DNA of 64,000 nucleotides, from the sequence record NC_047979.1; one strand, 5' to 3'. A program made the position numbers and the translations under genes. The notes beneath the pieces are model-generated. The model was given only the letters and a program-made list of their open reading frames with translations, made no database searches and was not told where the DNA came from. The stretch is from Escherichia phage Gostya9. Below, piece by piece: positions 26,054 to 32,556 of the stretch (its first letter is position 1; each line of letters begins with the position of its first letter).

Positions 26054-26131
26054 TGGCAGGGGATATTGGATTTGAACCAATGATCTCGACTTCAAATGCC
26101 GTAGCTTTAGGCCAAGCTAAGCTAATCCCCA
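26054..26131 (-). tRNA. tRNA, tentative Gln (UUG)
   Basis: T-arm ATTGG-TTCAAAT-CCAAT; anticodon loop ATTTGAA; unpaired 1-72 as in tRNA-Gln. Confidence 0.5.
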
Positions 26132-26137
26132 ATTGTT

Positions 26138-26231
26138 TGGCAGAAGGTAGTGGATTTGAACCACTGATCAGGATTTCAGAGACCTCGGCCTTAACCGACT
26201 TGGCTCAGGTTCTTCAAGGCGCTTACCTTCA
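26138..26231 (-). tRNA. tRNA-like element with canonical 3' half; 5' boundary and anticodon unresolved
   Basis: CCA, acceptor 3' strand and T-arm GGTTCAAATCC are clear; D-arm GCC-AAGTCGGTTAA-GGC present but acceptor closure is ambiguous; overlaps 3' end of ORF 26168..26377. Confidence 0.3.
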
Positions 26232-26377
26232 TGATCTACTCGAATGACTCCGCATCCTTCGCAAACCACAACTGCACCATAACCTTCTTTGACTTCGGCT
26301 TCTGTAATCAGACCAGATAAGTCACCAGTATCTCTGCCCCACATATCAATGGAGCATTGTTTGCAGAAATCAGCCAT
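26168..26377 (-). CDS. small zinc-ribbon protein (uncertain)
   Basis: 69 aa with CKQC..CEGCG; C-terminal tail overlaps a tRNA-like element. Confidence 0.35.
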   Translation of the reverse strand: MADFCKQCSIDMWGRDTGDLSGLITEAEVKEGYGAVVVCEGCGVIRVDHEGKRLEEPEPSRLRPRSLKS

Positions 26378-26379
26378 AA

Positions 26380-26607
26380 TTAATCCTTATTACAAGTGGT
26401 AGAGAGGATGGTACGATCGGAGATCCAACCGCCAGTGTAAGCACCATTGACTTTATATTCAGTCAAAGTACCGTGACCACGAATAGCGAAAACTGTTAGG
26501 GTTTTCGTGCCCCCATAACCATCTTTAACAGTTACGGTACAATCTAATGATGTGCCGATAGTGCAGCCAGCTAAAGTCAGAGCAGCAATCAATACTAAGT
26601 ATTTCAT
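26380..26607 (-). CDS. small lipoprotein
   Basis: 75 aa; signal peptide with lipobox LAGC. Confidence 0.5.
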   Translation of the reverse strand: MKYLVLIAALTLAGCTIGTSLDCTVTVKDGYGGTKTLTVFAIRGHGTLTEYKVNGAYTGGWISDRTILSTTCNKD

Positions 26608-26630
26608 GTTGTTATCCTTGTTAAGTTAAT

Positions 26631-26703
26631 TGGTGCATCCTCAGGGAATCGAACCCCAATCGTAAAGTTCGTGGCTTTACATTCTTTCCATTGAAATAAG
26701 GAC
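26631..26703 (-). tRNA. tRNA, tentative Arg (ACG)
   Basis: CCA + acceptor GCGTCCT/AGGATGC; anticodon loop CCACGAA; hand-folded. Confidence 0.4.
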
Positions 26704-26711
26704 GCAATATT

Positions 26712-26788
26712 TGGGGTGGCTAGTGGAATTCGAATCCACATAGGCCTGATTCACAATCAGGATCATTAACCAATTATGATATAGCCAC
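26712..26788 (-). tRNA. tRNA-His (GUG)
   Basis: perfect 7-bp acceptor, T-arm GTGGA-TTCGAAT-TCCAC, anticodon stem CCTGA/TCAGG with loop TTGTGAA. Confidence 0.6.
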
Positions 26789-27011
26789 AATTGAAAACTC
26801 GCAGGGTTAGCGAAACCATCCTCAATTAGCATGTCTAGAATACTAATCAAGTTATCTCCTATTGCATGCAGCTCAAGACGAGTACGAATTTTCAATTGTG
26901 GCGGCTCTCCGAAACTCTTCTATTCTAGTCCCAGAAGCTTACTCCCGAACGCATGTCGGGGAAGTCTTTCCAAGCGCACCAAATAGCACCGTTACACTTT
27001 GAGCCATTATT

Positions 27012-27106
27012 TGGAGGTAGGTAAGGGGATCGAACCCTTACACCGTATCACTACGATCAACCGATTTCAAGTCGGAGTCCAGCGCCAGCCGTTGGATTGA
27101 CCTACC
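27012..27106 (-). tRNA. tRNA-Ser (UGA), type II
   Basis: 95 nt; perfect acceptor GGTAGGT; anticodon loop CTTGAAA; long variable arm. Confidence 0.5.
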
Positions 27107-27118
27107 ATATAAATTGTT

Positions 27119-27209
27119 TGGCGGAAGAGGAGAGATTTGAACTCTCAAGCCGTTTTACCAGTCAGCCACTTTCCAAGCGGTTTTCGTCGCCAATTCGATT
27201 TGCTCTTCC
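27119..27209 (-). tRNA. tRNA-Ser (GGA), type II
   Basis: 91 nt; perfect acceptor GGAAGAG; anticodon loop TTGGAAA; long variable arm. Confidence 0.5.
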
Positions 27210-27321
27210 AATCATAAGATGATGCCTCTATCACGCCAGGCAGTTACGCCTCGCTGGGATTCGAACCCATTAAAACAGCTCAACCGAGATAGTAGGTTTA
27301 ATTTACTCTGACCATCAAATT

Positions 27322-27398
27322 TGGTGCGTGACAAGGGATTCGAACCCTCAAAACCCGACTTCTAGGGACGGTATGTATGCCAATTCCATCAATCACGC
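27322..27398 (-). tRNA. tRNA, anticodon unresolved (loop CCUAGAA)
   Basis: CCA + acceptor GCGTGAT/GTCACGC + T-arm AAGGG-TTCGAAT; anticodon stem has one mismatch. Confidence 0.45.
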
Positions 27399-27406
27399 GT
27401 ATTTTG

Positions 27407-27477
27407 TGGAGAAAGAGGGAGTTGAACCCTCGTCTTCTGCGTGCAAAGCAGATGTTCTACCATTAAACTATATCCCC
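27407..27477 (-). tRNA. tRNA-Ala (UGC)
   Basis: anticodon stem TCTGC/GCAGA with loop TTTGCAC; G3-U70 wobble pair present; CCA not encoded. Confidence 0.55.
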
Positions 27478-27714
27478 AAATTCTTTAGTTTACTAAGGCT
27501 ATTAGCTCGGCGTAACTACAGCACCTTCGCTTCGAGCGGAAGGAACCGCGTCATCTCGCAAACCCGATACACTATTCAGTTGCCGCTGAATCTAGTGGAC
27601 TAATCTAGAACTTCTCCCGAGTCGTAGGATCGTGCTTTTTGGCAGCCAGTCCTAGGTCGAGCTAATACCTTAGTGAACTATGATGAGGATTTCTCCCCAT
27701 CAATTTATATAAAT

Positions 27715-27743
27715 ATTATAACAAGAAATTAAGCATCAAGCAA
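27715..27743 (-). promoter_or_regulatory. sigma70-type promoter heading the tRNA / small-RNA unit
   Basis: TTGCTT-17-TATAAT on minus strand; no protein gene downstream before tRNAs. Confidence 0.6.
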
Positions 27744-27761
27744 ATGAGTTTTTCTTGAAAT

Positions 27762-27837
27762 TGGTAGCGGGTTCCAGTACTGCCCTGGACTTACTTAGCT
27801 TATGAGACTAAGAAGAACTCTATGCCTTCCACCCGCA
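27762..27837 (-). tRNA. tRNA, tentative Met/Ile2 (CAU); atypical T-loop
   Basis: CCA + acceptor; anticodon stem CTTAGT/GCTAAG with loop CTCATAA; T-loop GGCAGTA non-canonical. Confidence 0.4.
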
Positions 27838-27843
27838 ATTATT

Positions 27844-27907
27844 TGGTCAGTGCGGCAGGACTCGAACCTGCGACCCGAATCATCCAGGGATCCCACGCTA
27901 CGCACTG
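27844..27907 (-). tRNA. truncated tRNA-like element (64 nt)
   Basis: perfect 7-bp acceptor CAGTGCG/CGCACTG, CCA and canonical T-arm GCAGG-TTCGAGT-CCTGC, but only 29 nt between them. Confidence 0.3.
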
Positions 27908-27915
27908 AAATTTTA

Positions 27916-28263
27916 TTAGTTTAACCGTAAAGTATTATCTACTTCACCATTAATTGTTCGGCATTCCTCTGGGATTGTCGGAGTGGCCTTGTATTCCCAC
28001 CACTCAGCACCATCATATTCCCCACGTTCTAGCCAAGTTCCATCGGCAAACCATACATTACCATAAAGTAATTGTCCACCGTATCCAGAATCATATTCAA
28101 AGTCTAGGTTATTAAGAAAATCCCCAATATCTTCTTCTGTATAACCTAAAGGTAATACCCAAACTTTTTTGTCCCCATAATACCCGAATTCTATTTTAAT
28201 ACACTTAACTTTAGAATTGGTATTTTTTAAGGCGAGTAGCAGCTCTTCTTTAGCATTACGCAT
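27916..28263 (-). CDS. hypothetical protein
   Basis: 115-aa ORF. Confidence 0.45.
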   Translation of the reverse strand: MRNAKEELLLALKNTNSKVKCIKIEFGYYGDKKVWVLPLGYTEEDIGDFLNNLDFEYDSGYGGQLLYGNVWFADGTWLERGEYDGAEWWEYKATPTIPEECRTINGEVDNTLRLN

Positions 28264-28288
28264 AGTATATTCTCATACTGAGTTAATT

Positions 28289-28362
28289 TGGCGCGACCGA
28301 TGGGATTTGAACCCACATTCCCCGTGACAGGGGAGTACCATTACCAAGCCAGCCCCTGTCGC
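28289..28362 (-). tRNA. tRNA-Asp (GUC)
   Basis: anticodon loop CTGTCAC flanked by CTCCC/GGGGA stem; T-arm GGGTTCAAATCCC; CCA encoded. Confidence 0.55.
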
Positions 28363-28371
28363 ATAATTCAT

Positions 28372-28557
28372 TTACTCATATTTGAGTTTTTCAATAGCTG
28401 CATTAAGTTCTTTTAGAGCTTCACGACGTTCTACCTGACCTTGAAGTTCTTCAAGAAGTTCCGCTTTCAGAGTCTCAATAATTTTACCACGAACCTTGAT
28501 ATTATTAATCAGATTATCACGATCAGCTTCTAGTCGAGCAATTGCATGAGTTGTCAT
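28372..28557 (-). CDS. small coiled-coil protein
   Basis: 61-aa ORF. Confidence 0.4.
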   Translation of the reverse strand: MTTHAIARLEADRDNLINNIKVRGKIIETLKAELLEELQGQVERREALKELNAAIEKLKYE

Positions 28558-28584
28558 ATCTATTTCCTCAGTTATTAATGAAAA

Positions 28585-28658
28585 TGGTATCTGTGGCTGA
28601 ATTTGATGTCAGCAATGATAGCTGGTTGGCTACCGGTTTACTTAACTCTACACAGAAT
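28585..28658 (-). tRNA. tRNA, anticodon unresolved
   Basis: CCA + acceptor + T-arm GCTGA..TCAGC; candidate anticodon loop TATCATT. Confidence 0.4.
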
Positions 28659-28659
28659 T

Positions 28660-28740
28660 TGGCGGGCCGTGTAGGATTCGAACCACCAACCCCGAAGGGC
28701 ACGGATTTACAGACCGCTGCAATAGCCATTCTGCCAACGA
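28660..28740 (-). tRNA. tRNA-Tyr (GUA)-like, type II; acceptor closure not confirmed
   Basis: anticodon loop CTGTAAA, variable arm CCC-TTCG-GGG, T-loop TTCGAAT and CCA; no complementary 5' acceptor strand found. Confidence 0.4.
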
Positions 28741-28939
28741 TGTACATTTAAAAGTATTCAAATACTTGTTTAAACACTTTTAAATATGTTTCCAACTTAG
28801 ATAACTATTATATCTAGTTTTAAGGCACTGAGCAAGTCAGATTTTGAAGAATTTGCTCAGTGCTATATTAGTTAGTCGAACTTAGGAGTAACAATTAAAG
28901 AGAATGGGAGTTCGAAAACTTCATCAATTTATACAACTA

Positions 28940-28969
28940 TTATACCAGAAATTTAAAGCAAAAGGCAAG
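28940..28969 (-). promoter_or_regulatory. sigma70-type promoter (weaker -35 TTGCCT)
   Basis: TTGCCT-18-TATAAT on minus strand, upstream of a tRNA pair. Confidence 0.5.
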
Positions 28970-28998
28970 TACATTTTTAAAAATTCTGTTCGGAGGAG

Positions 28999-29205
28999 CT
29001 AAACTCCAGATTCTTCAGCCAAGTCTAGACTAATAAGAGTTATAGCCATAATTGCTGCACCGTGTTCTTTTTCTCCGGTGTTTTTAGCAGAGTCTATAAT
29101 ACCCTTAATCTGTTCGTAATAACTTTTTACTTCTTGTTCAATGCCCGCCTCGGCTATCATGCCTTTAGTCATGAGTCGTTGCATGGTAATTTCACGGTTA
29201 GCCAT
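28999..29205 (-). CDS. hypothetical protein
   Basis: 68-aa ORF; start overlaps stop of an upstream unlisted small ORF. Confidence 0.4.
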   Translation of the reverse strand: MANREITMQRLMTKGMIAEAGIEQEVKSYYEQIKGIIDSAKNTGEKEHGAAIMAITLISLDLAEESGV

Positions 29206-29365
29206 GATGTTTCTCCAGCTTCATTTTTAATAGTTTACAGATGAAATCAACGTCTTCATCCGTGCCTAAGTCTCTATCCCCAAGGGTCGCCTTGAAGTTT
29301 TTCGTTAGTTCCATAAGAATAACTTCCCTAGAACGACGTGTTGGCGGAGGTGGATGTCTATACAT
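29199..29365 (-). CDS. small Pro-rich protein (about 55 aa)
   Basis: ATG after AAGGA RBS; stop overlaps next start (ATGGCTAA); below ORF-track cutoff. Confidence 0.3.
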
Positions 29366-29380
29366 CTTATTTCCTTAATT

Positions 29381-29455
29381 TGGTGGGTCGGAGGAGAATC
29401 TAACTCCTACTCGTTAGCTTATGAGGCCACCGCTTTAACTTTAAGCTACCGACCC
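29381..29455 (-). tRNA. tRNA-Met (CAU) family
   Basis: perfect acceptor GGGTCGG/CCGACCC, T-arm AGGAG-TTAGATT-CTCCT, anticodon loop CTCATAA. Confidence 0.5.
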
Positions 29456-29461
29456 TATGTT

Positions 29462-31899: not shown

Positions 31900-32408
31900 A
31901 TTCCTGTGTCGATATTTTTAAGAACTCTCGTAAAAACTCTTAAAAATACAGACGATACCGGGAGAGTCATAAGTCTCACTCATTAAGTATTTCAAGACAA
32001 AATACAGTAACGTCTATTATTTTCCAGTTTAAGTCAAGGTGACTTAGTGGTTATGCCCTGCGGTATACTGGGGACTCGGTTAGGTTAGGGTCATGACTTC
32101 CTACCTTTTTGCTGCTACTCAACAGGAGTTATCGCGAATTACCTGTGCTATTGTGCACCATTAGTGGCATCTCTCATGCCAGCATTTCCCACTTTGTGGA
32201 TAGTTTGAAAAACTACTCCGATATGGAGGGAGAACTTCACTATCCTAGAATACCTTCTAAAGTTCTTCTTTAGCCTGGACATAGTTAAATCGTAATAAAA
32301 CTATTCAGCAGACTGGTTGGTTAGCCTGGAACCAACTACCGCGTGGTTTAGGCAGTGCGCAACTAACCTCGGAAGCTTTTACGTTAAAAGCACCAGTTAT
32401 CCAGTTCT

Positions 32409-32480
32409 TACCGATCGTAGGATTCGAACCTACATCTTCCACCAGTTACGGCTTGATAATACCGTTTATACTAGATCGGC
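32409..32480 (-). tRNA. tRNA, anticodon unresolved
   Basis: acceptor GCCGATC/GATCGGT, T-arm GTAGG-TTCGAAT-CCTAC; CCA not encoded. Confidence 0.45.
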
Positions 32481-32556
32481 AGTGTTACTACATAAGTGAT
32501 TTCCACACCCCACTATTTATAACTTAGAGAAGAATTACTCTCTAATTTATGAATAT

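Follow-up and report, generated by a model that had tools for sequence, protein, structure and literature searches.

A Cor/Llp-family lipoprotein gene in the tRNA cluster of the T5-like phage Gostya9 and its candidate receptor target

Known receptor-blocking lipoproteins and the tRNA-cluster gene

Receptor-blocking lipoproteins are, to our knowledge, the best-understood route by which lytic phages close the door of an infected cell; a solved complex exists for the FhuA blocker alone. That blocker, Llp of phage T5 (PDB 8A60, 7QJF), is encoded next to the receptor-binding protein gene (rbp) and divergently transcribed, and its termini are stapled by a Cys11–Cys58 disulphide (PMC9586334). The 88-aa Llp of BF23 and DT57C, encoded next to hrs, blocks BtuB; its function was shown by experiment, as cloned DT57C llp lowers plating more than 100-fold for both DT57C and BF23 and leaves T5 unaffected (PMC4728585). 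The 77-aa Cor proteins of HK022, phi80, N15, mEp167 and T1 (NCBIfam NF047972; PHROG 1119) are encoded downstream of tail-fibre genes together with two membrane-protein genes, and those of HK022 and other lambdoid phages exclude phages that depend on FhuA, not on FepA.

The window (the whole 64,000-nucleotide stretch of Escherichia phage Gostya9 that was analysed; NC_047979.1) comes from the left-hand portion of a Tequintavirus (T5-like) genome and is 98.8–99.8% identical to DT57C around the gene described here, an ATG-started ORF of 75 codons on the minus strand with the product MKYLVLIAALTLAGCTIGTSLDCTVTVKDGYGGTKTLTVFAIRGHGTLTEYKVNGAYTGGWISDRTILSTTCNKD. The protein resembles Cor in its length, signal peptide and lipobox, in a cysteine shortly after the lipidated one, in a C-terminal STTC and in a common PHROG profile. 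Unlike cor, the gene belongs to a lytic T5-like phage and lies among tRNA genes, and while Cor acts on FhuA, BtuB is the receptor of the carriers DT57C and DT571/2, and a receptor-binding protein (RBP) of the FepA-dependent H8 type is found in the Salmonella-phage carriers. Unlike T5 llp, it is neither rbp-adjacent nor divergently transcribed from rbp, and its product has no BLASTP similarity to T5 Llp. The BF23/DT57C Llp belongs to the same PHROG family but is encoded at a different locus, and the DT57C genome holds both genes. The idea of an exclusion protein is already on record as annotation: the identical DT57C protein (YP_009149833) carries the RefSeq label "Cor superinfection exclusion protein" and a depositors' note reading "cor protein [HK022] (low homology)". 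In the literature we found neither experimental work on the tRNA-cluster lipoprotein nor a description of its locus, its cassette structure or an association with FepA-type phages.

The lipoprotein, its family and its probable transcription unit

The ORF list and the sequence agree with the initial annotation, which had described a 75-aa protein with a signal peptide and an LAGC lipobox and had named no strand. The N-terminus, MKYLVLIAALTLAGC, is followed by the cleavage site and then by TIGTS; Lys2 provides a short positive n-region, a hydrophobic core comes next, and the lipobox is formed by L12-A13-G14-C15, with Thr at +2. In the Lol pathway, Asp at +2 is the avoidance signal and its absence predicts sorting to the outer membrane. 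The type II signal peptide and lipobox (MKYLVLIAALT-LAGC-T) carry no Asp at +2, thus sorting to the outer membrane is predicted. Cys15 is the only invariant column among 70 family members. A regex scan of the 64 kb returned two ORFs with a signal peptide and lipobox, against 0.16 expected in shuffled sequence. The other of the two encodes an Rz-like o-spanin of 117 aa (PHROG 812, E 3e-28), the homologs of which in Shivani and RUS_R2 are annotated as spanins; an o-spanin (Rz1-like) identity was also considered for the 75-aa protein and rejected, since the protein matches no spanin PHROG and the o-spanin of the window is this other ORF. The 75-codon ORF is a real, conserved coding gene under purifying selection, because dN/dS among its orthologs, those of Salmonella phages included, is 0.03–0.18; pairwise values for the window gene against its Salmonella-phage orthologs (0.10–0.14) do not exceed those among the latter.

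Homology to the exclusion lipoproteins Cor and Llp, a check proposed with the initial annotation, was found. Pfam has no match to the protein, but residues 1–74 align with positions 1–76 of the 78 in PHROG 1119 ("Cor superinfection exclusion protein"; E 1.3e-18), a profile that T5 Llp, BF23/DT57C Llp and HK022 Cor also match. BLASTP aligns the protein with HK022 Cor at 29% identity (E 2e-9), the cysteine after the lipobox and the C-terminal STTC included, and with DT57C Llp over the N-terminal 31 residues only (E 4e-4); T5 Llp gave no alignment. With the signal peptide removed, the next-best matches in 50,697 phage records are still lambdoid Cor proteins (29–32% identity), and a search with a profile of the subfamily plus HK022 Cor yields about 120 clusters, of which many are called "phage exclusion lipoprotein Cor" by their sources. 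Against the NCBIfam Cor equivalog model (NF047972; cutoff 31 bits) the protein scores 23.3 bits, compared with 138.8 for HK022 Cor and 35.6 for the homolog in Enterobacter phage KKP_3711. Cys23 and Cys72 (mature positions 9 and 58) align with conserved cysteine columns of the family and correspond to the Cys11–Cys58 staple of Llp, which suggests a putative disulphide. A Foldseek search of BFVD returned a T1-like superinfection-exclusion protein (E 3e-4, TM 0.67); the best structural match was Llp bound to FhuA, and the fold is of the small, Llp-like beta type. Among PDB sequences, a profile search hit 8a60_B alone, non-significantly (E 0.64) and mostly over the signal peptide. Profile, cysteine pattern and fold place the protein in the Cor/Llp superfamily. 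It is a divergent relative of Cor and not a Cor equivalog, because it falls short both in score and in genomic context; a different locus and the lack of pairwise similarity to T5 Llp set it apart from the T5-type Llp encoded next to rbp.

The placement of the gene within a tRNA cluster, also claimed initially, is confirmed by ARAGORN and Rfam: tRNA-His and tRNA-Arg(ACG) lie directly upstream, and downstream come a homolog of T5.062 and then two tRNA-Gln genes (Table 1). The last codons of the lipoprotein gene (AAG GAT TAA) supply the Shine-Dalgarno sequence (AAGGAT) of the T5.062 homolog. The leader of the lipoprotein gene is unstructured (MFE −1.1 kcal/mol), and a promoter scan found no promoter of its own between tRNA-Arg and the ORF. 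The region between the ORF and the counterpart of the T5 early promoter P13b holds only RNA genes (RNA2H, tRNA-Ala, tRNA-Leu, two tRNA-Ser-like elements, RNAI, RNAIII, tRNA-His and tRNA-Arg), and this counterpart is the likely source of a polycistronic tRNA/mRNA transcript. Judged from the P13b-like promoter upstream, early expression of the lipoprotein gene is plausible.

Table 1. Features of the lipoprotein locus and of related loci (positions refer to the window unless another record is named).
Feature	Position	Strand	Evidence or remark
CDS, 75-aa Cor/Llp-family prolipoprotein	26380..26607	-	Stop codon 26380-26382; ORF list, PHROG 1119, dN/dS
Signal peptide, residues 1-14, MKYLVLIAALTLAG	26566..26607	-	Sequence reading and lipobox regex scan
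Lipobox L-A-G-C	26563..26574	-	Cys15 (26563-26565) is the predicted lipidated +1 residue
Mature domain, 61 residues, five beta strands	26383..26565	-	Cys23 and Cys72 correspond in position to the disulphide pair Cys11-Cys58 of Llp
Shine-Dalgarno AAGGA	26615..26619	-	7 nt 5' of the ATG
tRNA-Arg(ACG)	26631..26705	-	ARAGORN and Rfam; directly upstream, ending 23 nt before the lipoprotein gene
T5.062 homolog (PHROG 2210)	26168..26377	-	Begins 2 nt past the lipoprotein stop codon
Counterpart of T5 early promoter P13b	27689..27753	-	94% identity over 65 nt to annotated T5 P13b
Weak tRNA	26141-26213	-	Rfam 33.5 bits, missed by ARAGORN; tRNA-Gln(CUG) in the DT57C annotation
RNAIII counterpart	26790-26894	-	95-98% identity to T5 for the three stable RNAs
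RNAI counterpart	26899-27005	-	As RNAIII
RNA2H counterpart	27497-27667	-	As RNAIII
tRNA-like element with long arm	27016-27106	-	tRNA-Ser(UGA) in the DT57C annotation; Rfam tRNA-Sec model, 38.3 bits, sub-threshold
tRNA-like element with long arm	27123-27209	-	tRNA-Ser(GGA) in the DT57C annotation; Rfam tRNA-Sec model, 19.7 bits, sub-threshold
tRNA-Ser with unusual anticodon ACT	32408-32481	-	ARAGORN; Rfam tRNA model 39 bits
Rz-like o-spanin ORF, 117 aa	20335-20688	-	Second lipobox ORF of the window
PHROG 16810 gene (S124)	L015:1719-2030		S124 annotation "T5 Llp-like receptor blocking protein"
PHROG 16810 gene (UTK0009)	L016:2695-3009		
PHROG 16810 gene (GSW6)	L017:7047-7361		
Three small ORFs next to rbp (Eos)	L024:2323-3021		Hydrophobic N-termini, transmembrane-like by eye; no lipoprotein

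Several RNA elements of the cluster are observations in their own right. The counterparts of RNAIII, RNAI and RNA2H, which are annotated in T5 as "stable RNAs with unknown functions", fall outside every Rfam family. The two long-armed tRNA-like elements were missed by ARAGORN, and blastn-short matched neither of them to a tRNA-Ser gene of T5. The weak tRNA downstream is overlapped by 46 nt of the 3' end of the T5.062-homolog ORF, which has 69 aa in the window and 66 aa in T5 and SuperGirl, where it stops before the tRNA.

Distribution among T5-like phages and RBP types

The window protein is 100% identical to its counterparts in DT57C and DT571/2, 83–85% identical to those in S124, UTK0009 and GSW6, 76% identical to one on a metagenomic contig and 35% identical to those in Enterobacter phage KKP_3711 and phage Eos. 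In every carrier (S124, UTK0009, KKP_3711, Eos and the metagenomic contig; tRNAs are unannotated in the GSW6 record) the homolog directly follows tRNA-Arg(ACG). When the locus is aligned with phages without the gene, the two differ by a clean indel of about 230 bp, located between tRNA-Arg(ACG) and the T5.062 homolog, and the leader AATTAACTTAA..AGGA, usually found 5' of T5.062, here precedes the lipoprotein ORF. The site has three states: tRNA-His followed by T5.062, as in T5 itself, which has neither the lipoprotein gene nor tRNA-Arg(ACG) there; tRNA-His, tRNA-Arg and T5.062, as in many phages; and tRNA-His, tRNA-Arg, the lipoprotein gene and T5.062, in ten records that represent five phages. 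The site is intact and without the gene in about 400 of 603 matching records, which have RBPs of other types than the H8 type described below, a figure estimated from evenly spaced entries among the 603. Scans of IMG/VR for the lipoprotein and for the FepA-type RBP returned only records of the same lengths as the known isolates DT571/2, S124 and H8.

S124, UTK0009 and GSW6 share a 637-aa RBP that is 96–97% identical among the three, about 25% identical to T5 pb5 and DT57C Hrs, and of the H8 type; H8 is a FepA-dependent T5-like phage, and S124 has been assigned to FepA (PMC8594841, PMC12980165). An RBP of this type occurs in only eight phages of the collection, and all three that combine it with an intact tRNA site (S124, UTK0009, GSW6) carry the lipoprotein gene. 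The H8-type phages without the gene are H8, Shivani, SLGBLB0002 and RUS_R2, and in each of these four a deletion, of differing extent, spans the site: H8 lacks the equivalent of window positions 26057–29459, Shivani and SLGBLB0002 have the T5.058 homolog joined directly to the T5.067 homolog, and the deletion in RUS_R2 is larger still. The eighth phage with an H8-type RBP, a 41-kb record labelled as a Corynebacterium phage, is absent among the lipoprotein matches. This record (PQ773600.1, "Corynebacterium phage CPphiVTCCBPA_418") holds a T5-like FepA-type rbp and terS and is probably a mislabelled or contaminant enterobacterial phage, as are, probably, several "Campylobacter phage" records (MG0656xx) with T1-like Cor genes.

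A lipobox ORF adjoins rbp in T5 and DT57C; none does so in S124, UTK0009 and GSW6. The rbp-adjacent gene of these three phages encodes an acidic protein of 103–104 aa with neither signal peptide nor lipobox (PHROG 16810, unknown function), and the "T5 Llp-like" label in S124 appears to have been given by position only; the 103-aa protein could itself be the real exclusion factor of FepA-type phages. KKP_3711 and Eos share an RBP type of their own (71% identity, no other close relative); their tRNA-site lipoproteins are 66% identical, again with no other close relative, and neither phage has an rbp-adjacent lipoprotein. Three small ORFs adjoin rbp in Eos (Table 1), and in KKP_3711 an unrelated ORF of 110 aa without a PHROG match lies there.

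The pairing of the gene with the H8-type RBP recurs on different backbones and is not simply inherited within a clade, because the backbone of UTK0009 matches phages without the gene and not S124 or GSW6: its 12.5-kb structural block is 97–98% identical to that of S132, KFSSM, Ace and PRF-SP13, all of them gene-free, and S124 and GSW6 are outside the 40 best matches of this block. S132 has been shown to use BtuB (PMC8594841). The association with FepA comprises three phage species and one pair of phages, and since T5-like genomes are mosaic these events are not fully independent. The complementary distribution of the two lipoprotein loci is what would be expected if, in phages with no Llp gene beside rbp, the tRNA-site lipoprotein were the cognate blocker, a role that would make FepA the target of the subfamily.

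Candidate mechanism and receptor target

The protein is probably made early, lodged in the outer membrane as a lipoprotein and able to jam a TonB-dependent transporter, a scheme for which the action of T5 Llp on FhuA serves as the model (PMC9586334). The gene would be transcribed early within the tRNA operon from the P13b-like promoter, and the mature lipoprotein would be held in the inner leaflet of the outer membrane. There its disulphide-stapled beta domain would bind the periplasmic face (the plug) of the transporter and, in the manner of T5 Llp on FhuA, lock the extracellular loops in a state that phages could not use; colicins and the natural ligand of the transporter would probably be shut out as well. 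We infer expression timing, localisation, binding and target identity, and every other step past translation. The most likely target of the window protein would be FepA, the receptor of H8/S124-type phages, which we name tentatively and at somewhat less than an even chance. Among the points against it, the nearest characterised homologs, Cor of HK022 and of other lambdoid phages, exclude FhuA-dependent and not FepA-dependent phages, and DT57C and DT571/2 carry the gene yet use BtuB. Because of these two BtuB users, the link to FepA needs an argument from a relic or from cross-exclusion. The T1-like phage IME253, which uses FepA, has a putative exclusion lipoprotein of FepA type, and this shows no detectable similarity to the window protein.

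The initial annotation had also proposed that the protein masks the receptor of the phage that makes it. The masking part of this proposal gains from membership of the Cor/Llp family; the part that made the phage's own receptor the target is probably wrong, as DT57C and DT571/2 have a BtuB-blocking Llp next to rbp. Both phages use BtuB, and their BF23-type llp adjoins an rbp, the hrs of DT57C, that its authors describe as a recent recombinational acquisition (PMC4728585). In the DT57C record, rbp and llp lie at 96985–99097, about 71 kb from the tRNA-cluster gene; the window ends before the rbp region, so that no rbp adjoins the lipoprotein gene within it, and receptor use by the window phage is read from DT57C and DT571/2, its nearest relatives. 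Since these relatives use BtuB and carry their own blocker of it, the tRNA-cluster gene would be a second, unlinked and non-cognate paralog in DT57C-like phages.

The protein might instead act as canonical Cor does, blocking FhuA against unrelated competitors that depend on it (T1, T5 and phi80-like phages) while the phage itself enters by BtuB or FepA. We regard this as unlikely, although some evidence favours it: the closest characterised relatives are the lambdoid Cor proteins, the subfamily profile retrieves proteins named as Cor, the best structural match is the FhuA-bound Llp, and the KKP_3711 version lies above the NCBIfam Cor cutoff and is 37% identical to T1-like Cor. In addition, no carrier has a T5-type FhuA RBP, as a cross-exclusion factor would predict. 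Yet the window protein itself stays below the 31-bit cutoff and lacks the cor cassette context downstream of tail genes, and similarity does not predict the receptor in this family, in which T5 Llp and Cor both act on FhuA at about 20% identity and BF23 Llp acts on BtuB. Nor would a FhuA target account for the presence of the gene in all FepA-type phages whose site is intact, for the lack of a lipoprotein next to rbp in these phages, or for the absence of the gene from about 400 other genomes. The Cor/Llp fold has been recruited to FhuA, to BtuB and reportedly to LptD (phage Rtp), and the target is unreadable from sequence, which leaves room for another outer-membrane protein (BtuB through a second blocker, Cir, Fiu, IroN, YncD or LptD) or for a periplasmic role unrelated to masking, toward which co-transcription and translational coupling with the conserved T5.062 homolog of unknown function might point. 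Such a target or role is improbable: no observation favours any particular alternative, DT57C already has a proven BtuB blocker, and all studied members of the family are receptor blockers.

The least probable reading makes the gene a leftover of the DT57C lineage, decaying or without function, from an exchange in which a BtuB-type receptor module replaced one of FepA type. The recent acquisition of hrs by DT57C (PMC4728585) would suit such a history, as would the dispensability of the T5-like tRNA region, which is often deleted; but the ORF, the lipobox, both cysteines and the Shine-Dalgarno sequence have stayed intact, the window, DT57C and DT571/2 encode the same protein, and dN/dS between the window gene and its Salmonella-phage orthologs is no higher than among those orthologs.

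A farther-reaching reading for the group as a whole, with FepA as the target, would give Markadamsvirinae two alternative homes for receptor-blocking lipoproteins. The copy in the tRNA cluster would be a FepA-specific blocker belonging to the H8/S124-type phages, and a DT57C-like phage that also has a BtuB-type Llp would practise dual-receptor exclusion by unlinked paralogs; we hold this composite to be possible, if on balance doubtful. BtuB would then be handled by the rbp-adjacent BF23-type Llp and FepA by the tRNA-site protein, so that both receptor classes would be shut at the same time on the infected cell and on its debris, and DT57C-like phages, having exchanged their receptor module, would retain the gene for cross-exclusion.

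If the protein is merely another FhuA-type Cor, the finding amounts to routine annotation. With FepA as its target, by contrast, the subfamily would provide the exclusion factor still missing for FepA-dependent T5-like phages and a natural, sequence-divergent second example of a 60-residue fold retargeted between TonB-dependent transporters. One Llp phylogeny places DT57C with S124 (PMC12980165), a grouping to be expected had the tRNA-site paralog stood in for the rbp-adjacent genes. A FepA blocker would also show that exclusion specificity is separable from the phage's own receptor, which would matter for the prediction of receptors and cross-resistance from "Llp" trees and would bear on the design of cocktails from T5-like Salmonella and E. 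coli phages.
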